A DNA stretch of 64,000 nucleotides from Candidatus Binatia bacterium. GTDB lineage: Bacteria; Desulfobacterota; Binatia; Bin18. A program made the position numbers and the translations under genes. The notes under the pieces were generated by a model, which searched no databases, was not told where the DNA came from, and saw only the letters and a list, made by a program, of their open reading frames with translations. Shown here one piece after another: positions 31,992-50,289 of this stretch. The stretch covers positions 4,256,001-4,320,000 of the forward strand of contig OY761159.2 of the NCBI GenBank assembly GCA_963664395.2. Direction: 5' to 3'. The number at the start of each line of letters is the position of its first letter. Within the stretch, counting starts at the first letter, position 1.

Positions 31992-32014
31992 CTCCGTGGC
32001 GACGGAGGGCCTAA

Positions 32015-32570: not shown

Positions 32571-32652
32571 CGCGGCAGTTCGTGTAACTGAACCTTCATT
32601 CAGCCATTCGGCCAAACTACACACTATAAGTATTGAGAGAAGGGGACTCAGT

Positions 32653-33897: not shown

Positions 33898-33910
33898 GGA
33901 AAGATATTTC

Positions 33911-35539
33911 ATGCACGGTAAACGCGGGCTCATATCCGTAGTCTGTCGCGTCCTCGGCGGGCTGTTACTCCTGGCGATCTCGGCCAATGTTTCGCCCTGT
34001 TACGGCTATTTCATGGACAAACAGGTTGATAAGGTCGTGAATACATGGTCACGCTTTGATCGCTTTCTGTCTACCTTTGATCCGGCGGGCCGGTACGTCC
34101 GACAGCCCGTAGAACGTCAGATCCCGGCCCTGACGTTTCGGGGGTTTCTCCGCCAATGGTCTGACGTCCAACTCTCAGGCGACCGCCGTGTCGGCAATCG
34201 GCGAAAAGACTTCCGTTTTTCCCAGATGCAGAATTTGCTGGAATTGGAACTCCACTACCAAGTCTCACCCAATATCGAAATAACCAATATCAATAACTTC
34301 ATATACGACGGTGTGTACAACTGGCAGGATTCTGCCGGTCTGTTTGCCTCCCGGACGAGCGAAACTTTCCGCGCCTATCATAACTTTGAACGCATCGTGC
34401 GCGAGCTGTATGTCAGCTATCGCACCCACAACCTGGATGTGGTTTTGGGCAAGCAGCAGATTGCCTGGGGTAAAATGGACGGCCAGTTCATTGATGTCAT
34501 CAACGGCATGGACAGGCGTGAGTCCGTCCAGCTTGAGTCGAGTGACTACGAGTGGCGCCGGCTGCCGGTCTGGATGGCGAATACGACCTATTTCTTTGGG
34601 GCAAACTCTCTCAACTTCCTGTGGATTCCGAACTTTGAGCAAGACCGCAATCCGGTCCCCGGCTCACCGTGGTATTCGCCCCTGGCTCCGCCCAGGGATA
34701 CGGAGACGAAAGCGCTCCTGGACGGCCGCCAAGACGCGACCGGGGATCAGTTCAGGGAGACGAAGCGGCCGTCTGCGGGCGACTTCGGCGACCATCAATA
34801 CGGCCTGCGGCTTGATGTTTCCATGGAACCGCTCACCTGGGGTCTCATTTATTATTACGCCTGGAATAAAAACCCGACGTCCTTCATTGTCGACCGCGAT
34901 ATCGATGCTGCCGGGGACCCCCATCTGACCTTTCAGCCGCGTTTTACCCGCATGCATCATCTCGGCATCACTGCCGACTATGCTTCCGCGCTCTCGAATA
35001 TGCCGCTTGTCGGCGAACTGCCCATGGTGCTGCGGGTTGAGGGTTTGTGGACCAAAGACGTTCCCTTCGCCGACTTTGACCATCAGCAGGCGGCGCGGGA
35101 CGGGAGTCTCAACTCGGGCATCATTCGGCGCGATACCCTGCGGGCCGCGATTGCGCTGGAGTTCGCCTTTCCCGGCAATACCTCTGCGATTATACAACCC
35201 TCACTCTTGTATACCTTTGACTGGCGTCGCAATCTCGGCGGGGGCTTTGGCGGAGGGATCGGAGATGAAATGAGCCTCCTGCCGGTCTTCTTTGTTGGGC
35301 GCCCGTTTCGCTTCACCCGTGACCGTTTGCGCCTGGAGTTGACCGTCGTTCCCGTTATCAGTCTGCCGCAGAAGAAATGGCAGGGCATCAAAACGAAATT
35401 TGTTTCGAGCTATCGCTTTTCCCAATTTGTTACCGGTCGCCTTATTTATACGGCGTTCAGTAGCGGTGATCGGACTGACCTGTACGGACAATATAACAAA
35501 TGGGACAATATCGGCTGGGAACTGAGTTACGAGTTCTAA
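33911..35539 (+). CDS. Outer-membrane beta-barrel protein, DUF1302-like
   Basis: Signal peptide, RELYV, LGKQQIAWGKMDG, C-terminal LSYEF; adjacent to DUF1329. Confidence 0.72.
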   Translation: MHGKRGLISVVCRVLGGLLLLAISANVSPCYGYFMDKQVDKVVNTWSRFDRFLSTFDPAGRYVRQPVERQIPALTFRGFLRQWSDVQLSGDRRVGNRRKDFRFSQMQNLLELELHYQVSPNIEITNINNFIYDGVYNWQDSAGLFASRTSETFRAYHNFERIVRELYVSYRTHNLDVVLGKQQIAWGKMDGQFIDVINGMDRRESVQLESSDYEWRRLPVWMANTTYFFGANSLNFLWIPNFEQDRNPVPGSPWYSPLAPPRDTETKALLDGRQDATGDQFRETKRPSAGDFGDHQYGLRLDVSMEPLTWGLIYYYAWNKNPTSFIVDRDIDAAGDPHLTFQPRFTRMHHLGITADYASALSNMPLVGELPMVLRVEGLWTKDVPFADFDHQQAARDGSLNSGIIRRDTLRAAIALEFAFPGNTSAIIQPSLLYTFDWRRNLGGGFGGGIGDEMSLLPVFFVGRPFRFTRDRLRLELTVVPVISLPQKKWQGIKTKFVSSYRFSQFVTGRLIYTAFSSGDRTDLYGQYNKWDNIGWELSYEF

Positions 35540-35578
35540 CCGACCTGCGTGAAAGAGCTCTCACCGGACGATCATCTT

Positions 35579-36937
35579 ATGCATAGACGCTTTTTTTTCC
35601 TGACGGTATGGGTCTTTTCTTTTCTCTCCAGCCTGGCGATAGCGATTGCTGGGGCTGCTGAGCAGAACGGCAGCCACCGGCAGACCTGGAAAACGGTAGC
35701 GGAGCTGTCCGAGGCGGAAAAGTCGCGTCTTGATTTCCGGGTCGATACCCCCCGAGATACGACGGTTCCATACCTCCCGGCCGAAGCCTATCCCTTTCAG
35801 CCGCCTTATACCGCGGAAGAGATGGGCTATCGGGCCATGGAATTCCCGCACATCGCCCGCTGGTCGCATGCTATGGCCGATGTGTTCGGCGCCATTACCG
35901 GCAACGGCTTTCTGGATGAAGGCATCACGCTGGGCTATAGCTATTATATCCCGGACGAAGATGGGGTGCCCGGTCAGCTCAGCATGACACCTGGGGAGGC
36001 CTATTTTCGGATGGTCTTCTTTTATACCTATCCGCCTGAGAATCAGGGCCTGCAGGACCTCTGGATCCTGAGACGGACAGACAAAGAGGAAACGACCAAA
36101 CTCGACAATTTTATCTATAGCCCAACATTGCGCCGCGTGCGTCGCCAGCCCCAACCCCGCCGTGATGCCCAATTCCCGAATAACGTCCAGACCTTTGACG
36201 ATGTGGTGGGGCGCGATGCCTGGGAGTTCTCCTGGCGGCTGCTTGGCACGGATGTGCTGCATGAGACCGTTCGTTTCCCAAATACCCGTCCGACAGTCAC
36301 CCTGGCCAAGCCCGACGGGAGTTTTAATGAGATCCCATCCGATCATATTAAAATGCTGGGCGACACGTATCCGCATTATACTGAAGACGGTGGAGTGGCC
36401 TGTTATGTGGTTGAGGCGACCAGACGAAAAGACTGGCTGCCCCACTATCGCATGGGCCGGCTCATCTATTGGCTCGATAAGCACAGTTTTTATCCGTTGC
36501 GAATTGAGCAGTATGACAATGACAACCAACTTCGGGTGATCGAGGTACGCAACGCCTATCTGGTCAATCCGGCACTGGAAGAACGTGGTTATGCCGGACT
36601 GTTCACCGTGTACTATGACATTGCTTTAGACCTGATGAGCTATAGCGCACATGATGCCCATTGGGTGAAGGAGTGGTCCCAAGAAGACCAGGATACGATG
36701 TTTGAGCCTGATTTTATGCGCCGCAATTGGCTCAAGTATCCGCTCAAATCCCAATCTCTGGTCTATTCTCCGGAAAAATTCTTTCTCCGCCCGCTCTTGT
36801 ATCCGGATAAATTCCCGCAGGACCGGAGCGTTGCCATCTCCGCAGAGCTGGAGCAGCGCTATCGTTTGCAGGAAGAAGCCGGACATCTAGTCTTCGACAT
36901 CTCCTCTCCGCTCATTGAGGTCAAAGCGCAACAGTAA
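35579..36937 (+). CDS. DUF1329-like (LolA-like) periplasmic protein, copy 1
   Basis: Signal peptide; YSPTLRRVRR motif; FDDVVGRD. Confidence 0.72.
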   Translation: MHRRFFFLTVWVFSFLSSLAIAIAGAAEQNGSHRQTWKTVAELSEAEKSRLDFRVDTPRDTTVPYLPAEAYPFQPPYTAEEMGYRAMEFPHIARWSHAMADVFGAITGNGFLDEGITLGYSYYIPDEDGVPGQLSMTPGEAYFRMVFFYTYPPENQGLQDLWILRRTDKEETTKLDNFIYSPTLRRVRRQPQPRRDAQFPNNVQTFDDVVGRDAWEFSWRLLGTDVLHETVRFPNTRPTVTLAKPDGSFNEIPSDHIKMLGDTYPHYTEDGGVACYVVEATRRKDWLPHYRMGRLIYWLDKHSFYPLRIEQYDNDNQLRVIEVRNAYLVNPALEERGYAGLFTVYYDIALDLMSYSAHDAHWVKEWSQEDQDTMFEPDFMRRNWLKYPLKSQSLVYSPEKFFLRPLLYPDKFPQDRSVAISAELEQRYRLQEEAGHLVFDISSPLIEVKAQQ

Positions 36938-36938
36938 G

Positions 36939-38282
36939 ATGGCTCTTCACGCGCAACAGCTCTTGTGGCTGCTTGTCTGCTGCCTGCTGTGTTCCGGCAG
37001 TCTGGGGGCCGCGACCGTGGCGGCAGACCAAGACGGTCTGACGCCGCAGAAAACCTGGACAACGGCTGCCGAGCTCACGGCCGAAGAAAAAGGAGTGCTG
37101 GATTTCCGTACGGACACGCCGCGAGATGCCAGCGTGCCCTATCTGCCGGCCGAGTCCTTCCCGTTTCAGCCGCCCTATACGGCGGAAGAAATGGCGCTGC
37201 GAGCCATGGAGTTCCCCCACTCGCCGTTCTGGGACTGCATCCTGATCGACATGGCGTTCTCGGTGACGAATTCAGGATTTATGGACCAACGCGTGACGCT
37301 TATTCCCATTCTGTATTTTCCTGAGAACGGCTTTGGAGAACATCTGTACGCGGCGCAGCCCGGCCAGGAAATCTATCGCTGGCTCTCCCAAAGCGTCTCT
37401 CCACCCGAACGGTACGGGAATCAGACCTTATGGATAGGCTATCGGACAGATAAGACCTTCCGGACGAAAATAGACATGTTCGCCTATTCTCCATCGCTGC
37501 GGCGAATCCGTCGTCAGCCGCAACCGCGGCGGGAAGACCGTTTACCAAACAGTGCCGCAACCTTCGATAATCTGATCGGACGCGATGCCTGGGAGTTCTC
37601 GTGGCGCATTCTCGGGACGGATGTTTTGCATCAGACGGTGCGTTTCCCCAAGACGCGCCAAACCGCGGTGCTGACCGACGAGAAAGGGCAGTACGTTGAA
37701 GTTGACGCCAAAGATCTCTCCCTCATGGGCAAAGAATACCCGCTCTATACCGCCGATGGTGGAGTCAAATGCTATGTGCTCGAAGCCATACCAAAATCCG
37801 ACTGGCTGCGTGACTACTATGCCCATAGGCTTATTTACTGGGTTGACCAATATGCGTTCTTTCCCTTGCGGATGGAAGAATATGACCGACAGGAGAATCT
37901 GAGTTTTGTGAACACCCGGATTGCGAGCCTTGCCAACCCGGCTCTTCAGGAACACGGCTACGCGGTTCAGTTTGACCTGTGGTGGGACGTGTCTATTGAC
38001 TTCCTGTCCGCCTCGACCCACGGTTTTGTCCCCCAGACCTGGTCAGCGGCAGACAAAAAGATATTCTTCAGCTCCGGATTCATGCGCCGCGAGTGGTTCC
38101 TTGTGCCGCCCAAGGGCCTGATGAGTCTCAACTCGCCGGACGAATTCTACCTGCGGCCCCCGCTCGAAGAGGGGAAATTCCCGGACTCGCGCTCTATCAG
38201 TTTGTCCCCTGGTCTACGGGCTCTGATTGAGGCCCAAGAGCGCGAGGGTAAGCTGGTGTTTGAGGAGGGAAGGGACGGCTAA
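36939..38282 (+). CDS. DUF1329-like periplasmic protein, copy 2
   Basis: Paralog of copy 1 (TPRD..VPYLPAE..PFQPPYTAEEM; YSPSLRRIRRQPQPRRED). Confidence 0.72.
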   Translation: MALHAQQLLWLLVCCLLCSGSLGAATVAADQDGLTPQKTWTTAAELTAEEKGVLDFRTDTPRDASVPYLPAESFPFQPPYTAEEMALRAMEFPHSPFWDCILIDMAFSVTNSGFMDQRVTLIPILYFPENGFGEHLYAAQPGQEIYRWLSQSVSPPERYGNQTLWIGYRTDKTFRTKIDMFAYSPSLRRIRRQPQPRREDRLPNSAATFDNLIGRDAWEFSWRILGTDVLHQTVRFPKTRQTAVLTDEKGQYVEVDAKDLSLMGKEYPLYTADGGVKCYVLEAIPKSDWLRDYYAHRLIYWVDQYAFFPLRMEEYDRQENLSFVNTRIASLANPALQEHGYAVQFDLWWDVSIDFLSASTHGFVPQTWSAADKKIFFSSGFMRREWFLVPPKGLMSLNSPDEFYLRPPLEEGKFPDSRSISLSPGLRALIEAQEREGKLVFEEGRDG

Positions 38283-38340
38283 GCGCGTCAGTACAGAGGG
38301 TACCACGGGCGGTTGCGGTTGCCGGTCCCCTCTGCGCGTC

Positions 38341-39456
38341 TTACTCCGTCGTGTGTGTATCTTGCCAGGCGCGGCCCATCGAGTCCGCGGCCAGAATGGC
38401 GTCGGCAACCATGTCAGGCTGCACGGCAAACGGTTCGTTATGGATGGTTTCTCCTTCCGCGGTCGCCCGCGTGGCCACTTGTTCAAGCAGGTCTTCCGGG
38501 AATTCGCTGAGCCCGATCTCGGCCAGGGTGATAGGCAGGCCGACCGCTGATGAAAACTCCAGAACCGGATCGATAACCGAGCGTGGCTGACCTTCGAGCA
38601 CTAATTGAGCCATCAGGCCGTAGGCGACTTTTTCCCCATGATAGTACGGATGGGTGAGCGGGGCTGCGGTGAGGCCATTATGGATGGCATGGGCTGCGGC
38701 AAGCCCTGAGGACTCGAAGCCCAGACCCGACAGCAGGGTGTTGGCTTCGACAAGCCGCTCCAGGGCTGGATTGACAACGTGACGTTCCACGGCCCGTTTC
38801 GCATCCGGACCGTCTTCAACCAGGATGTTGTAGCACAGCTCCGCCAGCTTTTCGGCGCTGCGCGTTGAGGCTCCCCCACGCATATTCTGGACATGACCGG
38901 CAACACAGGTTTTGGCCTCGAACCACGTGGCCAGCGCATCTCCCATCCCTGCCACCAGCAGCCTGGCCGGAGCTTGGGCGACAACATAGGTGTCCACCAC
39001 AACCAAATCCGGGTTCTTCCGATAAAAGCGATATTCCTGGAATACCCCTTCGGGAGTATAAATCACCGACAGCGCGCTGCACGGCGCATCACTTGAGGCA
39101 ATGCTTGGACAGTTGACGACAGGCAGATCAAGGTCGTCGGCGGCGGCCCGGGCCGCATCCAATACCTTCCCGCCGCCCGCTCCGATAATGACCTGAGCCT
39201 TATTCGCCCGCGCCGTTTCTTTGATACGTTCGATTTCAGGGTAGGAGCACTCCCCCCCGAACTGATGGACGACGTGGGTGATGCCGGCATCGTTCAAATG
39301 TTTCTGCCAGACTTCCGAGAGCAGCCGAATGGCACTTTTCCCGGCAACAATACAGGCCGGTCCCTGCAAGCCAATACGCTGCATTTCCGTTCCTAAGGCG
39401 GCAGTGGCGTGCTTCCCTTGTACGTAGTGGCTGGGGGCTGAAAAAACCGAGAGCAT
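38341..39456 (-). CDS. gldA: Glycerol dehydrogenase (GldA-family NAD-dependent diol dehydrogenase)
   Basis: GGECS, GGGKVLD, ASSDAPCSALSVIY, GDALATWFE, HAIHNG, HGEKVA. Confidence 0.9.
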   Translation of the reverse strand: MLSVFSAPSHYVQGKHATAALGTEMQRIGLQGPACIVAGKSAIRLLSEVWQKHLNDAGITHVVHQFGGECSYPEIERIKETARANKAQVIIGAGGGKVLDAARAAADDLDLPVVNCPSIASSDAPCSALSVIYTPEGVFQEYRFYRKNPDLVVVDTYVVAQAPARLLVAGMGDALATWFEAKTCVAGHVQNMRGGASTRSAEKLAELCYNILVEDGPDAKRAVERHVVNPALERLVEANTLLSGLGFESSGLAAAHAIHNGLTAAPLTHPYYHGEKVAYGLMAQLVLEGQPRSVIDPVLEFSSAVGLPITLAEIGLSEFPEDLLEQVATRATAEGETIHNEPFAVQPDMVADAILAADSMGRAWQDTHTTE

Positions 39457-39582
39457 ATGTCCCTCCTTACCGATTGCTATTCCCTCAGATAGAGCAGGCA
39501 GTATAAACTGAGACGGGTTGACGCGGCAAGCAGGAGAGGGCCATTGGGACAAGAGGAGAGACGTTACTGTCGCCCCATATTG

Positions 39583-40437
39583 ATGAGCAGGATTCAGTAT
39601 CGGGTGCTCTGTCTCGTTGTCTTCGCCCTCTGGGGGGCTGGATGTTCTGAATTGCCGGGCGAACCACTCAAGTTAGGTCGGCATACGTATAGTAACGACC
39701 CCAGCGCCGAGCCGTGTCCGCTCGGTGAACGGAGCGGCCAGGGTGGTATGAGCAACGATGAGCGGACCGAACACGGGATTACGTATGCGGTTCGGACGCC
39801 GGCCAACTACAATCCAAAGATTCTTCACCCGCTCCTCATGGTCTATGCCCCAGCAGGCTCAAGTCGGTTTCACTCCGAGCGTCTGACCAATCTGACTTTC
39901 ACGGCAACGACGGCCGGCTTTGTCGTTGCCTACGCTGACTCCCTGCGTCTTTCACTCGAAGCCATTCCTGAACTCGGTACGATTCCACGGCTCATCGCCA
40001 AAAAATGGTGTGTTGATGAGCGGCGTGTCTATCTGACCGGCCATTCTGACGGTGGAACAGTTGCCTTGGCCCTGGCCCTTTTAGACGAGACACGCCACAT
40101 TCCCGCTGCGGTGGCTCCGAGTGCCGCCGGGTTCAGGCAGGCCGACCTCGAAACATTCTCGTGTCCCGAAGCCTTGCCTGCGCTGATTATGCACAGTGCG
40201 GATGACCATCTTTTCCCCGGCTACGGGGCTGATACGGCTGCTTGGCTGGCTTCGTGTAACGAGTGCCAGCCCCGTTCTATTGACAAGGACGAAAACGGTT
40301 GTATGGCCTACTCAGGCTGCACGGCGGCGAACAGAAAGACCATATACTGCGAAGGAACTGGTGCGCATAGGCATTGGCCCGCGCTCAATACGGCTCTCCT
40401 CTCGTTCTTCGTTGATATCGATAGCACCCTTCACTAA
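39583..40437 (+). CDS. Lipoprotein alpha/beta-hydrolase (PHB depolymerase/LpqC-like esterase)
   Basis: Lipobox-like GAG|C; TGHSDGG nucleophile elbow; HSADD; GAHRHWP. Confidence 0.78.
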   Translation: MSRIQYRVLCLVVFALWGAGCSELPGEPLKLGRHTYSNDPSAEPCPLGERSGQGGMSNDERTEHGITYAVRTPANYNPKILHPLLMVYAPAGSSRFHSERLTNLTFTATTAGFVVAYADSLRLSLEAIPELGTIPRLIAKKWCVDERRVYLTGHSDGGTVALALALLDETRHIPAAVAPSAAGFRQADLETFSCPEALPALIMHSADDHLFPGYGADTAAWLASCNECQPRSIDKDENGCMAYSGCTAANRKTIYCEGTGAHRHWPALNTALLSFFVDIDSTLH

Positions 40438-40457
40438 ATAGGGCTCGCGCCCTGGAG

Positions 40458-40486
40458 TTGTCTCCGCTCCCTCAGCCTGCTATCTC
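40458..40486 (+). promoter_or_regulatory. Possible sigma70 promoter for the CuMMO operon
   Basis: TTGTCT-17 nt-TATCTC with TG extended -10. Confidence 0.3.
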
Positions 40487-40528
40487 AGTACCGTTGGTAA
40501 ATGACTGAAATTTCGTAAGAATTGACTG

Positions 40529-41101
40529 ATGCGACGAGCCTGCCGAATCTTCCTTCTCATATCCGCAGTGGCGACGCTCTGCCTGGCTCTTCCTGTGTCA
40601 TCCTGGGCGCACCGGGATAGAGGGCCGGGAGACCTGTGCCGCCGAGAGGTCGGTGCTTCACTCTTGCATATTACGTTCTATCAGACCCAATTTGACCCGG
40701 TCACAGAATATTGTGAAGAAATTCCGCGGGTGGGCAATGCTTTCCTGGTCGTGGACGTGACTCCGGATCTATGGGAAATGCCGTTCGGCGTCCAACTCGT
40801 TGCCTCAGATGAATCTGGACAGTCGAGTACGATACTGTCGCTGCCTTCACAAGTGTATGAACGTGGCGTGGCCAACGCTGAAGTCTTTGTGAAGGCCGGC
40901 ATGAGCTATGAAGTGCGTGTCGCGCTTGGACTTGAAGGTGAACCAGAACCGCGTAAATTTTTATTTCCCTTTCAGGTTGCAGCATGGTACAAGGCTATGG
41001 TCGGGCCAGCGCTGATTGTGATCGGAGTCGTTATCGTCATTGCGATATCGGTAATCCGTTATCAGATCACCTCTCGGAGCAGAGAAGCGCTGGTGGAATA
41101 A
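40529..41101 (+). CDS. PmoD/AmoD-like periplasmic copper protein, copy 1
   Basis: SSWA|H signal cleavage; C-x9-H-ITFYQ...EYCEEIP..G pattern; C-terminal TM helix. Confidence 0.78.
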   Translation: MRRACRIFLLISAVATLCLALPVSSWAHRDRGPGDLCRREVGASLLHITFYQTQFDPVTEYCEEIPRVGNAFLVVDVTPDLWEMPFGVQLVASDESGQSSTILSLPSQVYERGVANAEVFVKAGMSYEVRVALGLEGEPEPRKFLFPFQVAAWYKAMVGPALIVIGVVIVIAISVIRYQITSRSREALVE

Positions 41102-41151
41102 AGAGAGAGAGTGTAAAGTAACGTCGTTATTACTATTGAGGAGGGATACGC

Positions 41152-42000: not shown

Positions 42001-42062
42001 TAATCGGCTCAGGTTTGGCTCGATAAACGTATCGACAATCCTCGTGCAGAGAGGAAGTGCGC

Positions 42063-42866
42063 ATGGCGGCAGACACCACAACCGTAACGGACATCACCGG
42101 TGCAGCCGAACGGCAACGTCGGCTCGAACTCAAGGAGCTGCTGAACAAGAAATACAAGTGGCTTGGTTGGAAGTGGGATCTTGTCTTCTGGACGACGGCT
42201 ATTTTCGTAGTTGCCGGTGCCGCTGACATCACCAAGCAGCTGTTTGCCGGTGACTGGGATCACTGGACGGATTGGAAAGATCAGCAGTGGTGGCCGGTGA
42301 TCACGGCTTTTGCCACGATTATCATTCCGTCGGCGCTCCAGTACATTCAGTGGGCAGCTTGGCGATTCCCGACTGGCGCGACCTACACCGCCTGCTGTCT
42401 CTTTCTGGCTGCCTGGGCCGGGCGTTATTTCCAGTGGGACTTGGCGGCCAACTATCCGCTGAATTTCGTGTGGCCGGCCTCCGTCGTCTGCGCTGGAATC
42501 CTGATGGACTGGACCTTAATGAAGACCAAGAGTTTTATCCTCACCTCGTTAATCGGTGCCCATGTCTGGGCGATCGCGGTGTGGGCCTATAATTACGTCC
42601 CCTTAGCCGCCTTTCTCCAGCCGGCCTATTTCATGGACCATGTGGTGACGGTTGCCGACGTCCAGGGCATTGCCTATATCCGCTCCCAGACGCCGGAATA
42701 CCTCCGGCTTATTGAGCGGGGTGCGTTGCGGAGTTTCCTGGGCGAGACGCAATACGTTTCCCTGGCCTTTGGGGGAACGGCGGCCTTTGTTGGCTACTGG
42801 ATCGGTCAGTTTATTGGCCGTTATCTGGCGGTATGGCCTATTCGGCGTTATCTGAAGATCGTGTGA
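42063..42866 (+). CDS. xmoA: Copper membrane monooxygenase subunit A (PmoA/AmoA homolog), divergent
   Basis: GDWDHWTDWKDQQWWP, RFPTGAT, YPLNFVWP, ADVQG..YIRSQTPEYLRLIERGALRSF. Confidence 0.95.
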   Translation: MAADTTTVTDITGAAERQRRLELKELLNKKYKWLGWKWDLVFWTTAIFVVAGAADITKQLFAGDWDHWTDWKDQQWWPVITAFATIIIPSALQYIQWAAWRFPTGATYTACCLFLAAWAGRYFQWDLAANYPLNFVWPASVVCAGILMDWTLMKTKSFILTSLIGAHVWAIAVWAYNYVPLAAFLQPAYFMDHVVTVADVQGIAYIRSQTPEYLRLIERGALRSFLGETQYVSLAFGGTAAFVGYWIGQFIGRYLAVWPIRRYLKIV

Positions 42867-42867
42867 G

Positions 42868-43227
42868 ATGAATATTATGTGCGGCATGTCTTTCAAACGT
42901 CAGCAATCTGCCCGGTATGTCAGCGTCTTCTCTTTCTTCATCGCGCTGCTTGCCGGTGTGTCTCTCTATCCTTCCCTCGCGCATGCCCACGGTATGAACG
43001 CCGCTGAAATGGCCCCGCCTATTATTACCGCGGGCATACTGGCGTTCGTCTGCTACTGGCTCGTGGTTTTGTGGCCGGCATCGAAAGGTGCCGAAACCGG
43101 CCTGCAGTGGCCGCCGGAAACGGACCGGGCTATTCGCATCAAACGCAAGCCTCGCTTACGGGTCATAGAAACGAAGCCTCAGCTCCCGGACGAACAGCCT
43201 GAGAGCAGGCAGGTGGCCGATGGCTAA
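42868..43227 (+). CDS. Small membrane protein inserted between xmoA and xmoB (start uncertain)
   Basis: Hydrophobic leader ending AHA|HGM, second TM helix, basic tail; stop overlaps xmoB start by 8 nt. Confidence 0.65.
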   Translation: MNIMCGMSFKRQQSARYVSVFSFFIALLAGVSLYPSLAHAHGMNAAEMAPPIITAGILAFVCYWLVVLWPASKGAETGLQWPPETDRAIRIKRKPRLRVIETKPQLPDEQPESRQVADG

Positions 43228-44479
43228 GCGGTTCGTGATCGGTAGTGTCGGCGTGTTAGGCGTCATCCTGGCCGTTGTCGTCGCCAAGACGCCCAGCGCC
43301 TTTGCCCATGGTGAGGCTGCCGACGAACCGTTCTTGAAAAACATGACTACGGCTTTCTTCAACGTCAGCGTTTCGCCGACCGAAATCGAGGTGGGAGAGC
43401 CGGTCAAGGTGACGGGCTCGGTCAAAATCCTCGAGACCTGGCCGCATACGCTGGAGACCCCGGAAATCGCTTCCATCATGCCGGTCGTCCCCGGGCCGGT
43501 CTTTGTACTCAGGGAGCGTTTTGTCAACGGAACGGCCGCCATCGGCTCGTTTTTCGCCCAAAAGGGGGACATTTACGAGTTTGAAATGGAGCTGGTTGGC
43601 AAAGAGCCAGGGGACTGGCATGTGCATCCCGGTATCGCCATCTATGGGACCGGTACCCTGATTGGGCCTGGCGAATGGGTTAAAGTCAAACCAAGTGCTG
43701 AACCCTTCTCATTCCCGCTCACACTGATGTCTGGTGAGACGATTGAACTCGGTACGTATGGAGGATCATTCGTCTGGTGGTGGTCGTTTGCCGGATTTGT
43801 CTTGGGGGTTATCTGGATACTGTACTGGACGACGAATAAAAGAACGGTGACCAATCTCGCAGTCACTGTCCAGCTGCCAGTGAATGACGATGCCCCCGAT
43901 ATTGGCCTCATCACGCCGCGTGACCATATGTGGATGAATGTTATCGTTGGCGTGACCCTGGTTATGCTGGTTGTCGGTTGGACGTATGCCACATCAAATG
44001 CGCCAGTTCGCTGGCCGCAGCAAACGGACTGGTTTACTCCGGAATTCATTTCTTCTGGTGAGAAAATTGTTGAGGCCCGGGCCAGCGGGGCGACGTATGA
44101 CGAAGCGAGTGAAACGCTTGAGATGAAGGTCCAAGTGACGAATGTTGTTGAGAGCGACATCGAACTCAAGCAACTGACTATAGCGATGGCGACCTTCGTG
44201 AACGGACCGGAAGCCGAACAGGCGAAAGCCGGTCCGAGTGATTTTGTTGGTCGGCTCGAAGTCCAGCCGGACGGGCCGATTGCTCCGGGCGAAAATAAAG
44301 AGCTGACCCTGACTATTTCAAGTAGTATTTTCAGCGAAGAGCGTCTCATCCCGACGCAAGCACCGCAGCAGTTTATTGGCGCAGTCTTACGCTTTGAGAA
44401 TGGGAACGACGGTCATGAGTTAGTGACGGTCCGTTCAAACGTCGTCCCCACTCAGTTCCGTTCTACCTATCTGCCATAA
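43220..44479 (+). CDS. xmoB: Copper membrane monooxygenase subunit B (PmoB/AmoB homolog)
   Basis: AFA|HGE mature N-terminal His, PGPVF, PGDWHVH (CuB), two central TM helices, second cupredoxin domain PIAPGENK. Confidence 0.95.
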   Translation: MAKRFVIGSVGVLGVILAVVVAKTPSAFAHGEAADEPFLKNMTTAFFNVSVSPTEIEVGEPVKVTGSVKILETWPHTLETPEIASIMPVVPGPVFVLRERFVNGTAAIGSFFAQKGDIYEFEMELVGKEPGDWHVHPGIAIYGTGTLIGPGEWVKVKPSAEPFSFPLTLMSGETIELGTYGGSFVWWWSFAGFVLGVIWILYWTTNKRTVTNLAVTVQLPVNDDAPDIGLITPRDHMWMNVIVGVTLVMLVVGWTYATSNAPVRWPQQTDWFTPEFISSGEKIVEARASGATYDEASETLEMKVQVTNVVESDIELKQLTIAMATFVNGPEAEQAKAGPSDFVGRLEVQPDGPIAPGENKELTLTISSSIFSEERLIPTQAPQQFIGAVLRFENGNDGHELVTVRSNVVPTQFRSTYLP

Positions 44480-44520
44480 GCTCCAGAGCGGGGACAGACC
44501 TCCCCGCGGGTGGAGCCTCG

Positions 44521-45093
44521 TTGGACAGCGTTGTGAAACTCTTCTCCCTTGTTGCCATGCTCCTCGTCCCAACGGGAGCATGGGGACATGGGGGTGTCGC
44601 CATGGATATGGACCCCTGCATAGAGCGGGCCGGCGCCTATCTGATCCATTTTTCTGCCTACCAGCCGCAAGAGTACGCAACCGAAGAATTCTGTCGGAGC
44701 GTTCCTCTGACCGGGAGTACGATTCTCGTTTTTGATCTGATTGATCCCGAATTGCGCAAGAAATCAGCTGCGGTGCGCATTATTAAGGAAACCAATACTG
44801 CTGAACCTCGACTGTTGCTCGATATCCCGGCACGGGTGTATCCCAGCGGCGTGGTGAATGCTGAAGTCCATTTTGACACACCTGGCCAGTATACGGCCCT
44901 GATGACGCTTGACGGGGTTGATGGGTCTGTGCGGTTTCCCATTCGAGTCGCTTCACTCTCAAATACCATGCTGGTCCTGATCGCGGGCCTGATCATCGGC
45001 TGCGGCGCTGGCTATTATGTCGTCGGTGGCAAACTCGGTTGGCCACCGTTTTCGGTGAAAAAGGTTCCGTCACTCACATTGGTCAAGGGATAG
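44521..45093 (+). CDS. PmoD/AmoD-like periplasmic copper protein, copy 2
   Basis: AWG|HGGVAM; C-x9-H-FSAYQP...EEFC..P..G...VFDLIDPELR; C-terminal TM. Confidence 0.82.
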   Translation: MDSVVKLFSLVAMLLVPTGAWGHGGVAMDMDPCIERAGAYLIHFSAYQPQEYATEEFCRSVPLTGSTILVFDLIDPELRKKSAAVRIIKETNTAEPRLLLDIPARVYPSGVVNAEVHFDTPGQYTALMTLDGVDGSVRFPIRVASLSNTMLVLIAGLIIGCGAGYYVVGGKLGWPPFSVKKVPSLTLVKG

Positions 45094-45151
45094 GTGCGAA
45101 ACCACCTATCCCCCCTTTTCCTAACGCTCTGTTCACAGTACATATTGAACG

Positions 45152-46846
45152 ATGTGGCTGCGTGGTCTTCTCTTTTTCTGCCTTCTTCTGAGTGTACTCG
45201 CTATCGGTACGCTTTTTCTGCTTCCTCGTGCCTGGCTCCCCCGCCCGATACAAGACTTTGCGTATCAATATATCGGCGAAGAGTCCTACCAAAAGCCGCC
45301 TCCCAGTCGCGAAATAAGCCCTGTCAGTGTGGAGCCATTTTGTCTGGACAGACACCCAGACTGGCGGAAACCTCAGACTATTGAGGGCGTTGCCGTGGAA
45401 GCATCACCGGTTTGTGATCCAGATAATCCAGCCGACATTGCGGCCTTTGTCAAAGGGACGAATAATATTGCTCTGCACACGCTCATGGAGACGCGGCTCA
45501 CGCCCAATACGGTGGTGAAGGAGAACGACCGAGACGGGGATGGCGACCCGGATGAGATTCACATCCGACTTGAAGTCATAGAATTGAACGGACACTCACC
45601 GGATGACCCCGCCCCATTCCCCGCCTATTTCATTGCGCCTGGCGTACAGCCCGGGCTGTGGGTTTTTGCTCCAAAATCACGCGGCATGGCGACGGAGAAT
45701 TTTGAAAGTGAACAGGCGCACCCGACCTTGAGAGCCCCGTCTCCGGTGATTCGTATAGAGCAGGGTGATACGCTCCGGGTGACCTTGGAGAATACACACT
45801 ATCTGCCGCATACCATTCACTTCCATGGGGTTGACCATCCCTTTGTTGACGCCGCCGGCGAGGGAAACGACGGTGTTCCCATTGTGAGTGAAATGCCAGT
45901 CACACCAGGGGAGAGTCGCACCTATGAGATGACCCCGCGTCAAACGGGCACGATGTTTTACCACTGCCACGTCCAACCTCATGTCCATATTCTGATGGGA
46001 CTCCAGGGCATGTTTGTTGTTGAAGAGAACCGGCCGAATAACTGGCTCCAAACGCTCAATATTGGAGCCGGTCGGGTGCGCGCTGTCTCTGCGGCAGTCA
46101 GAGAGTCGTATGATCGGGAATTCGACCTGCACTACCAAGACATCGACCCGGCGTTGAATAACATTATTCAGACCGCGACGGATCCCAGATTAATCGCCGA
46201 AGCGACGAATCGGGGTTATGACATTACGGATCAAGAACCTGACTATTTCTTACTAAACGGACGGTCATTTCCCTATACGACCCGCGAGTCGCTTGTTGTT
46301 GTTGCCCCAAATGAACGGGTCAAACTGCGTGTCCTCAACGGCGGAGCGGAAGGAATCTCTCTGCATACGCATGGGCATAAAGTCAAAATCACGCATTATG
46401 ACGGCGTCGAACATAATCCGGCTGCTCAAATCACCCGCGATGTGGTATGGCTGAGCCCCGCCCAACGGGTAGATCTTCTCCTCAATACAACTGATGACGG
46501 ACTGCATAATTATGGGCAAGGCATCTGGCTGCTCCACGACCATAAGGAAAAGGCCATCACAACTGATGGGATCAACCCTGGTGGCAATATCAGTGCCATT
46601 GTCTATCAGGATTACTTGGACGCATCCGGTCAGCCGAAAACGCAGGGGATGGATTGGGCGCCGTTTTTCACCAAGGAGTATTATCAAAAAAAGCTTCCCA
46701 TCTGGGCTGGCCTGGAGGACTTTAACCTTTTTGGAGAGGCGGGTACTCGTTCCCTGCCCTTGAGTTCCGCACTCATACTCGGGATAGGTATCGGCTTCCT
46801 CATCGGCGCGGCTTGTGCCTTTGGGCGATTTACCCGACGCCGATGA
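45152..46846 (+). CDS. Membrane-anchored two-domain multicopper oxidase (T1 site in domain 1)
   Basis: HTIHFHG; YHCHVQPHVHILMG; LHTHGH; LHDH (no Cys); TM helices at both termini. Confidence 0.85.
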   Translation: MWLRGLLFFCLLLSVLAIGTLFLLPRAWLPRPIQDFAYQYIGEESYQKPPPSREISPVSVEPFCLDRHPDWRKPQTIEGVAVEASPVCDPDNPADIAAFVKGTNNIALHTLMETRLTPNTVVKENDRDGDGDPDEIHIRLEVIELNGHSPDDPAPFPAYFIAPGVQPGLWVFAPKSRGMATENFESEQAHPTLRAPSPVIRIEQGDTLRVTLENTHYLPHTIHFHGVDHPFVDAAGEGNDGVPIVSEMPVTPGESRTYEMTPRQTGTMFYHCHVQPHVHILMGLQGMFVVEENRPNNWLQTLNIGAGRVRAVSAAVRESYDREFDLHYQDIDPALNNIIQTATDPRLIAEATNRGYDITDQEPDYFLLNGRSFPYTTRESLVVVAPNERVKLRVLNGGAEGISLHTHGHKVKITHYDGVEHNPAAQITRDVVWLSPAQRVDLLLNTTDDGLHNYGQGIWLLHDHKEKAITTDGINPGGNISAIVYQDYLDASGQPKTQGMDWAPFFTKEYYQKKLPIWAGLEDFNLFGEAGTRSLPLSSALILGIGIGFLIGAACAFGRFTRRR

Positions 46847-47580
46847 GGGAATACCAAATGGATTTCTTTCTGAGGAAGAATGATTATAGGGGGACGGTGG
46901 CGTCCGGGAGAAGGCAGCTCCATAGGGCCGTCTCTACACTGATTGTCTATACCGTGTCCACATTGCTTTCCGGCGCGATCGGCTCGGCTCAAGAGCATGC
47001 TCATCACCATAAACATCATGGGATGCAGCTCGATACTGCGGGTATGGTGATGAATGAAAATACGGACCAGCTCCCCCGGGGCTGCCCCCGCATTTCAGGT
47101 GAGCACGAGCTTACCGTTCGTGCCGGAAAAGAATTTGCCCACCCAGGGACGATGTTCGCGTATGATCGGAACGAATGGGATTTTAAGCCATGTACGAAAC
47201 TCACGGTGACGCTCATTAATACGGACAGTGTTCGTCACCAGTGGATGCTGCACGGCCTTCCGCGCTATATCTACCCCCAGGGCATGTTTACGCTTGAAGT
47301 CGCGGGCAAAGGGCAGCGGACAGGTACCTTTATCCTTCCGCCCGGAGACAAGACCTATCTGGTGCACTGTGATGTTCCTCAGCATATGGAAAAGGGAATG
47401 AAGGCCCAGCTCAAGGTCGGGGCTGGAAATGGGGATCTGCCCAGCATTCCCGGGGTGACCGGACCGCGTCTGCGGGACCCGTATTCAATGGCCTGGAACT
47501 GGTGGACGCATGGTGCTGTCTTTGTATTCGGTATCGTCAGTATGATCTTCGTGGGAAGAAGGTTGCGCCTTTTTCCCTAG
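46843..47580 (+). CDS. Membrane-anchored cupredoxin with His-rich N-terminus (start uncertain)
   Basis: QEHAHHHKHHG; HQW...HCDVPQHMEKGM type-1 Cu ligands; C-terminal TM; ATGA overlap with the MCO stop. Confidence 0.82.
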   Translation: MREYQMDFFLRKNDYRGTVASGRRQLHRAVSTLIVYTVSTLLSGAIGSAQEHAHHHKHHGMQLDTAGMVMNENTDQLPRGCPRISGEHELTVRAGKEFAHPGTMFAYDRNEWDFKPCTKLTVTLINTDSVRHQWMLHGLPRYIYPQGMFTLEVAGKGQRTGTFILPPGDKTYLVHCDVPQHMEKGMKAQLKVGAGNGDLPSIPGVTGPRLRDPYSMAWNWWTHGAVFVFGIVSMIFVGRRLRLFP

Positions 47581-47610
47581 GAGTTCGGGGCGTCATATGC
47601 CCTCTTTCTC

Positions 47611-47639
47611 TTGACCTCCAGTCTAAAAATAAGTAGGGT
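47611..47639 (+). promoter_or_regulatory. sigma70-type promoter upstream of the PQQ dehydrogenase
   Basis: TTGACC-17 nt-TAGGGT. Confidence 0.5.
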
Positions 47640-47685
47640 TCGACCACATTTTTCGATTGTCAATTACTCCGAGGAGGCATTATCC

Positions 47686-49398
47686 ATGCGAGGTTACTGG
47701 TTGTCGATATTTTTACAGGTGGCAGTCTCTCTCATGCTTCTCTCTCCAACCGCACTTTACGCTGACGCGCCTGCCAAGAACGCTGACGCGCTTCAGCCGG
47801 TTACGCACGAGCGTTTGGTCAAAGGAACGGCCAACTACGCTGACTGGCTGATGTACGGTGGGAATTATGAAGGCTGGCGATTTAGTCCCCTAACGGATAT
47901 TGACCGCCAGAATGTCAAAAAACTCCAGGCCGCCTGGATTTTTCAAACCGGGGTGCCAGCCCAAATGCAAGCCTCACCCGTGGTTGCCGATGGCGTGATG
48001 TATCTTACCGCGGCCTACAACAAGCTCTTTGCTTTAGACGCCGTAACTGGCAAACCGCTCTGGAAATATGACCATGATCTGCCGGACGATCTGCGGATTT
48101 GCTGCGGACCGGGCAACCGGGGAGCTGCGCTGGCTGGGGATAAGGTCATTATGGCCACGCTGGATGCGCGTATTGTCGCACTCAACAGGAAAACCGGTGC
48201 AGTCGTGTGGAATACCCAAGCCGACGACTATGCCGACGGCTTCAGCTTTACCCTGTCACCACTGATTGTTCGAGACAACGTCATTGTTGGTATTGCGGGC
48301 GGTGAATACGGTATTCGCGGCTATATTGATGCCTATGATCTTAAGACCGGAAAACGCAAATGGCGTCGTTATACGGTGCCTGACGAAGGCGAGCCTGGTG
48401 CCGAGACCTGGGCTGGTGATTCGTATAAACAAGGCGGCGGACCGGCTTGGGTGACTGGCTCGTATGATGCGGATCTTGACCTGGTTTATTGGGCAACGGG
48501 TAATCCGGCCCCGGACTGGAACGGGGATGGACGTGAGGGTGATAATCTCTACACCAACTCGGTGTTAGCTCTTGAGCCTGATAGCGGTGAGATCAAATGG
48601 TACTTCCAATTCACCCCGCACGACGTCTGGGACTATGATGGCAACACGGGGATATTTCTGCTCGACGTGATGCGCAGTGGCCAGTCTGTCAAAGCCTTAG
48701 CCCAGCCCAATCGGAACGGATATATGTATGTCCTTAATCGTGGGGATGGAAAGTTCCTGCACGGCTCCCAATACGTTGAGCAGCTCAACTGGGCGAAAGG
48801 GCTGGACGAAAATGGCCGGCCGCTTATTGACCCCAAGTATGTTCCCATGGAGGGAGGCAATCCTGAATTAATCTGTCCCGGGAATGCGGGGGGACAAAAC
48901 GGATCGTATGCTGCGGCCTACAGCCCGCTTGCCAATCTCATCTTTGTCCCGACGATTGAGAGTTGCGGAAAAATGGAAAAGGCCAAATCTATTTTCATCA
49001 AAGGCATCCCATTCTGGGGCGGGGGGCCTGGACAAACGCAGGGCGACCTCGGCACAGCATACGGTCACGTCACGGCCATAGACCCCACCAGGGGTGAAGT
49101 GAAGTGGCGCTATAAGGACGAGTGGCCGATGGTTGGTGGGGCACTCGCTACAGCCGGGGGACTCGTATTTACCGGCAACCAAAAGGGATTCGCTCTTGCC
49201 TTGGATGACGCGACGGGTGCGGTCTTGTGGAGGTTCCAAACTGGCTCGGCTGTTCGGGGACAACCGATTACATACAAAGTTGGTGGTAAACAATATGTTG
49301 CTGTTCCCAGTGGCGCCGGGGGGTTGGTCGTGGATATCGTCGGTAAATATCCCCAAACAACACCGGGTAGCTCTGTTGTGGTATTTGCGCTCCCGTGA
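47686..49398 (+). CDS. PQQ-dependent alcohol dehydrogenase, predicted lanthanide-dependent
   Basis: Signal peptide; RICCG vicinal Cys; GGEYG; GNPAP; TPHDVWDYDG carries the extra Ln-binding Asp. Confidence 0.92.
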   Translation: MRGYWLSIFLQVAVSLMLLSPTALYADAPAKNADALQPVTHERLVKGTANYADWLMYGGNYEGWRFSPLTDIDRQNVKKLQAAWIFQTGVPAQMQASPVVADGVMYLTAAYNKLFALDAVTGKPLWKYDHDLPDDLRICCGPGNRGAALAGDKVIMATLDARIVALNRKTGAVVWNTQADDYADGFSFTLSPLIVRDNVIVGIAGGEYGIRGYIDAYDLKTGKRKWRRYTVPDEGEPGAETWAGDSYKQGGGPAWVTGSYDADLDLVYWATGNPAPDWNGDGREGDNLYTNSVLALEPDSGEIKWYFQFTPHDVWDYDGNTGIFLLDVMRSGQSVKALAQPNRNGYMYVLNRGDGKFLHGSQYVEQLNWAKGLDENGRPLIDPKYVPMEGGNPELICPGNAGGQNGSYAAAYSPLANLIFVPTIESCGKMEKAKSIFIKGIPFWGGGPGQTQGDLGTAYGHVTAIDPTRGEVKWRYKDEWPMVGGALATAGGLVFTGNQKGFALALDDATGAVLWRFQTGSAVRGQPITYKVGGKQYVAVPSGAGGLVVDIVGKYPQTTPGSSVVVFALP

Positions 49399-49441
49399 GC
49401 GCTAGAGCTGAGCCAAGATCAGTCAAAGATAAATCAGAGGT

Positions 49442-49471
49442 GGAGAGGCGCAGCATGGCCCCTCCTTTTTT
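49442..49471 (+). terminator. Intrinsic terminator ending the CuMMO/ADH locus
   Basis: GGAGAGGC...GCCCCTCC stem (one mismatch) followed by T6. Confidence 0.6.
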
Positions 49472-49494
49472 GTTGCGTACGCTCAATACCAGCC

Positions 49495-50121: not shown

Positions 50122-50289
50122 AGGTGTCAATCCTCCCTCTAGCGACAGCGAGCTGTCGCCTGAAATCATGAAGATGTCAGGAATACTATCGAAGAACACG
50201 GTGAAAGAACACTGTCACTGCTAGGCGTGCCAAGAAGCTCGTGCTAGGGTCGGGGGCTCTTTACCAAAAAGAAAGAGAGGGAGGGATAC

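Follow-up and report, generated by a model that had tools for sequence, protein, structure and literature searches.

A divergent copper monooxygenase locus of Candidatus Binatia: its core genes, linked copper proteins and alcohol-oxidizing neighbors

This work concerns a locus coding for a divergent copper-dependent membrane monooxygenase (CuMMO; genes xmoC, xmoA and xmoB) in a 64-kb window (G000:C1:4256001-4320000; positions below are those of the window unless a genome or locus is named) of the 5.04 Mb, 95.9% complete genome of a Candidatus Binatia bacterium. A preliminary description of this DNA had presented 33911-49398 as one self-contained, 15.5-kb oxidation module joining outer-membrane uptake, the CuMMO, copper electron carriers and a lanthanide alcohol dehydrogenase. 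Comparison with relatives upholds the right two-thirds of that stretch and removes the left third, which holds the uptake genes. We consider it probable (roughly 0.6) that the working unit is the segment of about 40.5-49.4 kb of the window and not 33.9-49.4 kb. Its operon would be pmoD1-xmoC-xmoA-orfX-xmoB-pmoD2, coding for a Binatia-type CuMMO, in which XmoCAB may hydroxylate a small substrate at the membrane. A multicopper oxidase (MCO) and a cupredoxin, as a second unit after a hairpin, would form with a nearby esterase a cassette serving the CuMMO. The alcohol produced would be oxidized in the periplasm by the adjacent PedH-like pyrroloquinoline quinone-dependent alcohol dehydrogenase (PQQ-ADH), and the product of gldA would be a loosely linked cytoplasmic partner.

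A cassette shared by two distant CuMMO lineages

The strongest evidence on the accessory genes comes from a CuMMO that is only remotely related to that of the window. In three genomes of family f3 (G019, G064 and G001), an orthologue of the window's MCO is encoded 2-3 kb from a different CuMMO (loci L086, G019:C5:78000-97000; L087, G064:C2; and L088, G001:C11). The XmoA of this third lineage is 40-42% identical to the window's and 46-48% identical to that of a second CuMMO copy in the genome studied here, while its XmoB and XmoC are 28-30% and 30-33% identical to the window's, respectively. Its gene order is xmoC-xmoA-xmoB and then PmoD-MCO-cupredoxin-esterase; a gap of some 110 bp separates A from B, and orfX is absent. 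A PmoD gene thus occupies the same position between xmoB and MCO as in the window. The accessory proteins (PmoD 35-43%, MCO 59-60%, cupredoxin 55-62% and esterase 44-47% identical to the window's) are far better conserved between the two lineages than the enzyme subunits. This sharing of the set with a distant lineage suggests that the four proteins act with CuMMOs in general; the linkage is directly observed, and service to the enzyme is the role to which it points.

The second CuMMO operon of this genome (G000:C1:2386400-2389366; L090:8401-11367, minus strand) has the order C-A-B and no orfX. Its XmoA shares 38% identity with that of the window, and its relatives are very few: three clusters reach at least 75% identity, and the next stands at 57%. 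No PmoD, MCO, cupredoxin or esterase gene lies beside this operon, the flanks of which code for a beta-lactamase-family protein, a resistance-nodulation-division efflux pair, a phospholipase D-like protein, a Zn-dependent alcohol dehydrogenase and luciferase-like monooxygenases. MCO, cupredoxin and the PmoDs are single-locus genes in this genome. Both CuMMO types are present in 14 of the 16 other sampled genomes of the genus; G070 carries the second type only and G150 the window type only.

Which neighbors belong to the locus

To delimit the locus, 22 proteins of the window were mapped on the best 80 XmoA-encoding loci from a species-level genome collection (XmoA 71-97% identical to the window's), with at most 10 kb per side, some contigs being shorter, and with matches required to cover at least half of the query protein. 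The always-present core of these loci is xmoC-xmoA-orfX-xmoB (xmoA in 80 of 80, xmoC in 77 and xmoB in 75). Around it, pmoD1 lies 5' of xmoC in 50 of the 80 loci, MCO is found in 26, cupredoxin in 24, after MCO, and pmoD2, once cross-matches are resolved, between xmoB and MCO in 21; the second PmoD, MCO and cupredoxin occur in the window's family and nearby families. The esterase and gldA genes are each present in 21 loci, those with gldA including L030-L032, where XmoA is 82-84% identical to the window's. PQQ-ADH is encoded in 19 loci, downstream in 16 and upstream beside gldA in the remaining three (L022, L024 and L034). This retention beside the CuMMO in relatives bears out the earlier proposal that the copper proteins and the alcohol dehydrogenase are its partners. 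DUF1302, the first DUF1329 gene (DUF1329a) and the adjacent CoA-transferase gene are each found in 16 loci, where XmoA never falls below 90% identity to the window's, and the adenylate kinase gene in 15, in the same near relatives as DUF1302. Because they are confined to the same near relatives, the DUF1302, DUF1329, CoA-transferase and adenylate kinase genes show synteny without a functional signal. Locus L012 (XmoA 90%, full flanks) keeps the block from esterase to PQQ-ADH and lacks the upstream gldA and DUF1302 genes. Several public metagenome-assembled genome (MAG) records with a Binatia-type locus (L017, L023, L031, L037, L042 and L062) are labeled Klebsiella pneumoniae, Enterobacteriaceae, Thermodesulfobacteriota, Acidobacteriota or Verrucomicrobiae; mis-binning or mislabeling of contigs is the probable cause.

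The phyletic pattern in 201 genomes of the class Binatia separates the same genes. Window-type XmoA (at least 73% identity) is encoded by 35 of the 201 and by 22 of the 24 genomes of the window's family, and an MCO orthologue by 28 of the 201, which in this family are the same 22. Neither was found in G070 (97% complete, 170 contigs) or G158 (82% complete). DUF1302, on the other hand, has an orthologue in all 24 genomes of the family, G070 and G158 included. It is also physically remote from xmoA in genus g3, by 0.85 Mb in G118 and by 3.4 Mb along a 4.3 Mb contig in G025, and G043 and G178 carry the two genes on different contigs. The window's own genus offers a further case in G134, where contig 9 bears DUF1302 and gldA, and contig 24 bears xmoA, MCO and PQQ-ADH. 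Furthermore, a DUF1302 paralogue at 2628799-2633381 of this genome likewise abuts two CoA-transferase genes. The segment 33911-38282, with DUF1302 and the two DUF1329 genes, is the tail of an upstream row of CoA-transferase genes and not part of a CuMMO module, and the left border at 33911 is arbitrary, as DUF1302 starts 14 bases after a CoA-transferase gene of the same strand.

In the full reading of the preliminary description, a DUF1302 barrel and DUF1329 proteins would bring the substrate in through the outer membrane; the description had named as refutation the failure of flanking genes to co-occur with the CuMMO in relatives. For the uptake part, this failure is what the neighborhood comparison returned: these genes adjoin the CuMMO in only the 16 closest of the 80 loci. 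That the whole of 33911-49398 is a single module with such an import function hence appears very improbable to us. The adjacency of the genes, all but gldA on one strand, the synteny held in those 16 loci, and a DUF1329 gene about 7 kb downstream of xmoB in the soil locus L041 speak for it. They are outweighed by the 14-bp gap to the CoA-transferase gene, the interposition of a convergent gldA between DUF1302 and the CuMMO, the equal synteny of adenylate kinase and luciferase-like genes in the same 16 loci, and the behavior of the DUF1302 paralogue. Moreover, L012/G134 (XmoA 90%) and the g3 genomes have the CuMMO locus without DUF1302 nearby. DUF1302 orthologues are present in three genomes in which window-type XmoA was not found (G070, G158 and G028) and in G046, the only XmoA match of which is at 34%.

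The monooxygenase and its copper ligands

XmoC, XmoA and XmoB are encoded together and each scores above the Pfam gathering score, which places the enzyme in the three-subunit CuMMO superfamily. The earlier label of a divergent CuMMO is apt: XmoA falls outside the characterized clades sampled, and the proteins stay below all NCBIfam Amo/Pmo equivalog cut-offs, namely those of AmoA_BACT (190 against 290), AmoB_BACT (263 against 336), AmoC_BACT (156 against 319) and the CH4_NH3mon_ox families (164 against 318 for A, 179 against 395 for B and 140 against 281 for C). XmoA is 60-75% identical to a large set that includes proteins of Caldinitratiruptor microaerophilus, Carbonactinospora thermoautotrophica and Lentzea as well as MAGs labeled Dormibacteraeota, Egibacteraceae and Acidobacteria. 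Its identity is 42-45% to the plasmid-borne actinobacterial hydrocarbon monooxygenases (HMO) of Rhodococcus, Mycobacterium dioxanotrophicus and M. chubuense NBB4, and 37.5% to Methylomagnum pXMO (pxmA).

A quick LG+G4 tree of XmoA, midpoint rooted, was built from 98 rows: each fifth match of the first XmoA search with all named ones, all full-length matches to the second-copy XmoA, six Binatia loci and three plasmid references. Its named references are NBB4, Rhodococcus WAY2, Methylomagnum pXMO and Haliea ETY-M, with Nocardioides CF8, SAR324 and the canonical Pmo and Amo outside the tree. The window's XmoA lies in a Binatia clade of 12 rows (support of 100 in the Shimodaira-Hasegawa-like approximate likelihood ratio test, SH-aLRT), nested in a clade of 36 rows (stem 1.06, SH-aLRT 100) that is separate from these four outside references, that is, from NBB4/Rhodococcus, Haliea ETY-M and the pXMO group. 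Both the tree and the identity of 42-45% place XmoA outside the characterized actinobacterial HMO clade.

All 21 XmoB sequences compared have H30, H134 and H136, and these residues align with solved PmoB. In XmoC, D143/H147/H160 and N217/H221/H235 are common to all 22 sequences and align with the PmoC columns of 4PHZ. These columns we take, from the literature on particulate methane monooxygenase (pMMO), to be the ligands of CuB, CuC and CuD, respectively; on this alignment, XmoCAB retains all three ligand sets. For the substrate, a C2-C4 alkane or alkene, or a similar small volatile, is our foremost, if tentative, candidate. Something other than methane or a small hydrocarbon-like volatile is nearly as plausible, and methane itself is improbable.

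OrfX, a small protein of the Binatia subclade

A spacer of 1 nt separates orfX from the xmoA stop, and the 3' end of orfX shares 8 nt with xmoB. Its orthologues occupy the gap between A and B throughout the Binatia clade. In an alignment of 30 OrfX sequences, the signal peptide closes with AxA, and the predicted mature protein opens with an invariant His-Gly; further along come a Pro-Pro, a single hydrophobic helix with Trp-Pro at its end, and a tail of basic character. An OrfX profile matched 559 proteins, the best 120 of which have no Pfam domain, with Candidatus Binatia as the only named organism among them. Against Pfam at E up to 10 there were chance-level matches only, and against solved structures, the chains of solved ammonia monooxygenase (AMO) included, no match at E up to 10.

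The distribution of OrfX was traced in 79 metagenome loci retrieved with a query from the sister clade. It is present in 34 of 38 loci with XmoA at least 72% identical to the window's, and in all 26 of those that include xmoB, against 0 of 36 sister-clade loci. It was found in none of the 41 loci with XmoA less than 72% identical, where A and B abut and which are also without PmoD, GMC oxidoreductase and MCO genes. Between the window and this sister clade, XmoB is sharply diverged (about 38% identity), and XmoA is about 67% identical. OrfX is thus an addition of the Binatia subclade that accompanies a sharply diverged XmoB. By analogy with archaeal AmoX and with the supernumerary single-helix subunits reported in native pMMO and AMO (PMC11725843), it is a candidate for a lineage-specific extra CuMMO subunit, translationally coupled between xmoA and xmoB, with a single helix and a predicted N-terminal His. 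Complex prediction of OrfX residues 41-119 with XmoC, XmoA and XmoB gave a score of 0.00 in two control-less runs, which weighs neither way.

The copper proteins

Neither pmoD1 nor pmoD2, the products of which are 27-28% identical to each other, has a Pfam or NCBIfam match even at E = 10. A profile of both with their orthologues nevertheless matches solved PmoD 6CPD (E = 7.7e-19), in keeping with their earlier label as pmoD-like, and this homology, two invariant Cys and a hydrophobic C-terminal stretch place them in the PmoD family. PmoD1 is predicted to begin with a His once its signal peptide is removed; a Cx9H...C motif follows, and a membrane helix ends the protein. The residues invariant in the family alignment are H28, C37, H47 and C62, with C37 and C62 in 19 of 19 sequences. 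Both proteins have nine residues between Cys and His and no Met at -2, and neither belongs to the CuA-forming Cx7MxH...C class; the Cx9H...C class is described in the text of Fisher et al. 2018 (PMC6189053) as binding copper without showing a CuA spectrum. Soil Binataceae carry the upstream PmoD as a fusion with an SCO1/SenC domain (L041:7774-9027), which suggests a role in copper delivery. Most likely, both PmoDs deliver or hold copper for the enzyme.

The MCO is membrane-anchored, with a helix at either end. After the N-terminal helix comes a conserved extension, about 190 aa long and not assignable to a known family, and then two cupredoxin domains. It aligns with 2ZWN in two domains (residues 195-295 and 362-504), with HFH and HCH motifs in the first and HTH and HDH motifs in the second. 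With 2ZWN and 3G5W as its best solved relatives and the type 1 Cys in the first domain, it is from sequence a two-domain MCO, as had been stated. The cupredoxin is a single domain with a type 1 copper motif and a C-terminal helix, that is, a membrane-anchored protein. The ATG at which its gene probably starts shares bases with the stop codon of MCO, as ATGA. For the role of this pair, an electron relay stands at about even odds, and control of copper redox state or copper loading is a somewhat weaker candidate.

Oxidation of the alcohol

The PQQ-ADH was compared with solved structures, among which PedH of Pseudomonas putida (6ZCV) scores 413 bits (E 1.8e-122) and XoxF 333-334 bits (about 1e-98). 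Its WDYDG aligns with WDFDG of PedH, as do the vicinal Cys, and the extra Asp of this motif is presumably diagnostic of lanthanide dependence. The enzyme therefore appears to be of the lanthanide type, as the preliminary description had it, and closest among solved structures to PedH-type ethanol dehydrogenases. PqqC is encoded in the genome, in which Fae and Mch were not found. In-frame stops interrupt the PQQ-ADH orthologue at G134:C24:42255-44000 (TGA and TAA) and at G094:C1:3269794-3271548 (TGA), and gldA at G070:C134:252-1367 (TGA) and at G172:C153:7797-8966 (TAG); they may reflect decay or sequencing error.

The enzyme for this step varies between lineages. Soil relatives have a gene for a GMC oxidoreductase at 41 of the 80 loci, 71-95% identical in product to that of L041 and located either next to PmoD-SCO1 (L041:6227-9027) or a few kb after xmoB; no such gene was found in the genome studied here. 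In NBB4 and Rhodococcus WAY2, mdo, the gene for a methanol dehydrogenase dependent on N,N-dimethyl-4-nitrosoaniline (NDMA), lies beside hmoCAB. The occurrence of three unrelated alcohol oxidizers (PQQ, GMC and Mdo) in the same position suggests that the CuMMO yields an alcohol and that this is oxidized at once, presumably by the GMC enzyme in the soil relatives and by Mdo at the actinobacterial HMO loci.

The gene gldA, for an NAD-dependent glycerol/1,2-diol dehydrogenase, is transcribed divergently from the esterase and CuMMO genes and is linked to them in three genera and in L030-L032. This linkage is the only source of the idea of a possible diol product; acetone-to-acetol and alkene-to-diol chemistry were considered as explanations for gldA. 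The esterase has a GHSDG motif, a signal-like N-terminus and, through weak Pfam, NCBIfam and structure matches, the character of a feruloyl esterase or polyhydroxyalkanoate depolymerase. An epoxide hydrolase role for this alpha/beta-hydrolase was considered and rejected in view of the serine-type GHSDG and the weak resemblance to feruloyl and acetyl-xylan esterases and polyhydroxyalkanoate depolymerase.

Transcription units

The preliminary description had a terminator closing the locus. A hairpin with a U6 tail does follow PQQ-ADH (-15.8 kcal/mol, z -2.1, 7 of 200 shuffles folding as well), but the strongest hairpin of the region, with a 10-bp stem (-17.4 kcal/mol, z -3.0, 0 of 200 shuffles), lies inside the locus after pmoD2. 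A weaker one follows cupredoxin (47587-47603). A scan for sigma-70 promoters found 10 sites where 10.4 were expected and is uninformative.

Twelve RNA-library runs contain at least half of the sampled words of 40500-49400, and four runs from two studies were compared. An X2 contig (40441-42304) bridges pmoD1, xmoC and xmoA, one of X3 (41001-44578; 3578 nt, 4 mismatches) runs from xmoC through xmoA, orfX and xmoB into the start of pmoD2, and one of X5 covers 41113-43347. Further contigs bridge the junctions MCO-cupredoxin, cupredoxin-PQQ-ADH and CoA-transferase-DUF1302, and gaps without contigs in X3 and X5 (for example 33768-35035) do not imply silence. By word depth, a weak measure, contigs of pmoD1-xmoCAXB stand at 16-70 and those of MCO and cupredoxin at 0-8 in all four runs. 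This fall coincides with the hairpin after pmoD2, and together with the hairpins it argues for two or three transcription units rather than one.

Alternative readings and points against the proposed unit

The enzyme might be a genuine pMMO, with the neighboring PQQ enzyme as its methanol dehydrogenase. Literature on sponges and floodplains annotates such genes as pmoA, which a sponge Binatota bin is reported to transcribe (PMC9999580; PMC11264602), all copper ligand sets are kept, and a lanthanide-type PQQ dehydrogenase is adjacent. We nonetheless regard this as unlikely. XmoA is far from the sole proteobacterial reference and nearer to the hydrocarbon group, published texts group the Binatia sequences with butane/hydrocarbon monooxygenases (PMC11264602; bioRxiv 10.64898/2026.02.02.703227), and A, B and C alike miss the CH4_NH3mon_ox cut-offs. 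Likewise, the PQQ enzyme is nearer to PedH than to XoxF and is replaced by a GMC oxidoreductase in relatives, and neither Fae nor Mch was found. Copper-only oxidation of ammonia and hydroxylamine, in the manner of ammonia-oxidizing archaea (AOA) with a CuMMO, a two-domain cupredoxin protein and a plastocyanin-like carrier in place of hydroxylamine oxidoreductase (HAO), is far less probable still. A similar gene set and C-A-X-B order are described for Angelarchaeales and AOA (PMC9038741), the MCO relatives include Nitrosomonas europaea 3G5W, and, as had been noted from the DNA alone, the window has no hao (0 of 60 open reading frames of at least 100 aa match the Pfam family of HAO). Nevertheless, the conserved neighbors are alcohol oxidizers (PQQ and GMC) and gldA, the XmoA clade goes with the hydrocarbon group, and the OrfX profile matches no solved AMO chain.

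More serious, though still doubtful in our view, is the possibility that MCO, cupredoxin and PmoDs form a set for copper homeostasis or loading only, free of electron transfer, and that the alcohol dehydrogenase is adjacent by chance. PmoD homologues are often encoded near MCO, PCuAC and CopC genes according to the text of PMC6189053, the PmoD-SCO1 fusion and the absence of MCO from soil family f9 (see below) fit such a set, and the hairpin and the fall in contig depth part MCO from the operon. Yet a dedicated single-domain type 1 cupredoxin coupled to an MCO is more typical of electron transfer, the linkage of PQQ-ADH is kept in two arrangements, and the locus has no cytochrome c gene to serve PQQ-ADH, no c-type cytochrome being matched by Pfam among the same 60 open reading frames.

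Several observations also count against the unit of about 40.5-49.4 kb that we favor. MCO was found in 0 of 25 genomes of f9, nine of which carry window-type XmoA; carriers of the CuMMO can thus do without MCO, although it is specific to them. MCO genes near PmoD homologues are a known pattern of copper homeostasis (PMC6189053), so that an electron relay is not needed to explain the MCO. The adjacency of PQQ-ADH is confined to two genera, a 71% identical paralogue is encoded elsewhere in the genome, and gldA is apart from the CuMMO in G134. Contigs of X1 and X2 (48166-50155) reach from the 3' part of PQQ-ADH past the hairpin and into the adenylate kinase gene, which is convergent with it; this could be read-through, antisense RNA or library DNA. 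The RNA data are assembled contigs only, in which transcript starts, strands and levels are unreadable, DNA carry-over is possible and depth cannot rank genes. The placement of XmoA draws on the few named references of the tree, and the substrate is a guess.

A more ambitious extension of the favored unit appears unlikely to us as a whole: that OrfX, PmoDs, MCO and cupredoxin are a copper-only support system, movable between CuMMO lineages, which would load copper and feed electrons from PQQ-ADH through cupredoxin to the CuMMO, with OrfX as an obligate fourth subunit whose N-terminal His contributes a metal site. To our knowledge, the physiological reductant pathway has never been pinned down for any CuMMO. 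If electrons did pass from PQQ-ADH through cupredoxin to the CuMMO, such a pathway would have been found, and a cupredoxin linking alcohol oxidation to the monooxygenase would bear on the electron source of CuMMOs.

Relation to known systems and significance

The remark in the preliminary description that the presence of a CuMMO is not in itself new is correct: the CuMMO of Binatia, its CAxB order and pmoD were published in 2021. The main text of Murphy et al. 2021 (mBio, PMC8262859) reports the orders CAB, CAxB and CAxxB, pmoD in five of 11 genomes, two copies in two genomes, and affiliation with the butane-monooxygenase group of Actinobacteria/SAR324 or with the tropical upland soil cluster (TUSC). 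The texts of PMC11264602 and bioRxiv 10.64898/2026.02.02.703227 call the substrate of the Binatia CuMMO unknown. Thus, the present locus shares lineage, enzyme, CAxB order, pmoD and the hydrocarbon/butane-group affiliation with the loci of these three reports, the main texts of which, supplements aside, do not describe x as a protein family, the PmoD pair and its motif class, the cassette or the PQQ/GMC swap. Likewise, in the literature searched, supplements aside, we did not find OrfX as a conserved subclade-specific protein, a PmoD-MCO-cupredoxin-esterase cassette common to two distant CuMMO lineages, or the interchange of PQQ, GMC and Mdo alcohol oxidizers.

Three kinds of system invite comparison. 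The actinobacterial hmoCAB loci (M. chubuense NBB4 and Rhodococcus) likewise combine a three-subunit CuMMO with a nearby alcohol dehydrogenase gene (mdo, divergent), have small hypothetical genes after hmoB and fall in the same half of the XmoA tree. They differ from the window in that nothing is encoded between A and B and that PmoD, MCO and cupredoxin genes are lacking, and their alcohol enzyme is NDMA-dependent and cytoplasmic, whereas that of the window is PQQ-dependent and periplasmic. The pmoCAB and amoCAB systems with pmoD, amoD, amoE and copCD, as described in the text of PMC6189053, resemble the window in a PmoD with two invariant Cys and a C-terminal helix and, for some classes, in MCO neighbors. 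In contrast to these systems, Binatia have Cx9H...C rather than Cx7MxH...C, two PmoD paralogues flank the operon and no copCD is found in the window. The archaeal C-A-X-B clusters of Angelarchaeales and AOA (Diamond et al. 2022, PMC9038741) offer a small membrane protein between A and B and cupredoxin-type companions. Unlike these, the locus studied here is from a bacterium and has alcohol-oxidizing neighbors, and OrfX matches no solved chain, AmoX being compared by description only.

Binatia are widespread in soils, sediments and sponges, and their 'pmoA' has been counted as a methane sink in the literature. The interchangeable alcohol oxidizers beside the enzyme argue for hydrocarbon-to-alcohol chemistry. 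Narrowing the functional unit removes the outer-membrane uptake genes as a false component and leaves two experimental handles, the four-gene core with its lineage-specific small protein and the MCO-cupredoxin-esterase cassette of two lineages. As the metagenome loci of the sister clade are without the extras, cultured carriers (Caldinitratiruptor, Carbonactinospora and Lentzea) could be natural controls.

Gene inventory and surroundings

All 14 genes named in the preliminary description were recovered by open reading frame listing, Pfam, NCBIfam and profile search at the positions and on the strands that it had given; they are listed in the table with the two main hairpins.

Features of the CuMMO region and its left flank (window positions)
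Feature	Coordinates	Strand	Evidence or remark
DUF1302 gene	33911-35539	+	Pfam
DUF1329/LolA-like gene a	35549-36937	+	Pfam
DUF1329/LolA-like gene b	36915-38282	+	Pfam
gldA-type NAD-dependent glycerol/1,2-diol dehydrogenase	38341-39552	-	Pfam Fe-ADH; NCBIfam NF006941, 489 bits (cut-off 336)
Serine esterase (alpha/beta-hydrolase)	39544-40437	+	weak Pfam
pmoD1 (190 aa)	40529-41101	+	profile match to 6CPD
xmoC	41152-42000	+	Pfam AmoC, 143.7 bits (gathering score 26.7)
xmoA	42057-42866	+	Pfam AMO, 179.1 bits (gathering score 27.5)
orfX (119 aa)	42868-43227	+	small membrane protein
xmoB	43220-44479	+	Pfam Monooxygenase_B, 236.2 bits (gathering score 22.7)
pmoD2 (190 aa)	44521-45093	+	profile match to 6CPD
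Hairpin after pmoD2	45087-45112	+	possible attenuator or terminator
Two-domain MCO	45152-46846	+	Pfam Cu-oxidase_3, Cu-oxidase_2, Cu-oxidase
Cupredoxin	46813-47580 (open reading frame; probable start 46843)	+	Pfam Cu-oxidase_2, 21.6 bits; Copper-bind, E 0.035
PQQ-ADH	47611-49398	+	TIGR03075, 594 bits (cut-off 480)
Hairpin with U6 tail	~49442-49471	+	between convergent PQQ-ADH and adenylate kinase genes

Upstream, four family III CoA-transferase genes and an RDD-family gene form a row on the + strand (28266-33897) that continues unbroken into DUF1302. Downstream of PQQ-ADH lie a convergent adenylate kinase gene and then two luciferase-like monooxygenase genes; CoA-transferases and luciferase-like proteins have more than 30 paralogues each in the genome. 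At five soil loci, xmoB is followed by a YtcA-HlyD-FUSC-OEP efflux set, which is complete in four. Farther upstream in the window, a 180-aa fragment of a DDE transposase (DDE_Tnp_1; 23873-24415) lies between genes for a type II/IV secretion ATPase and a protein of the metallo-beta-lactamase fold.

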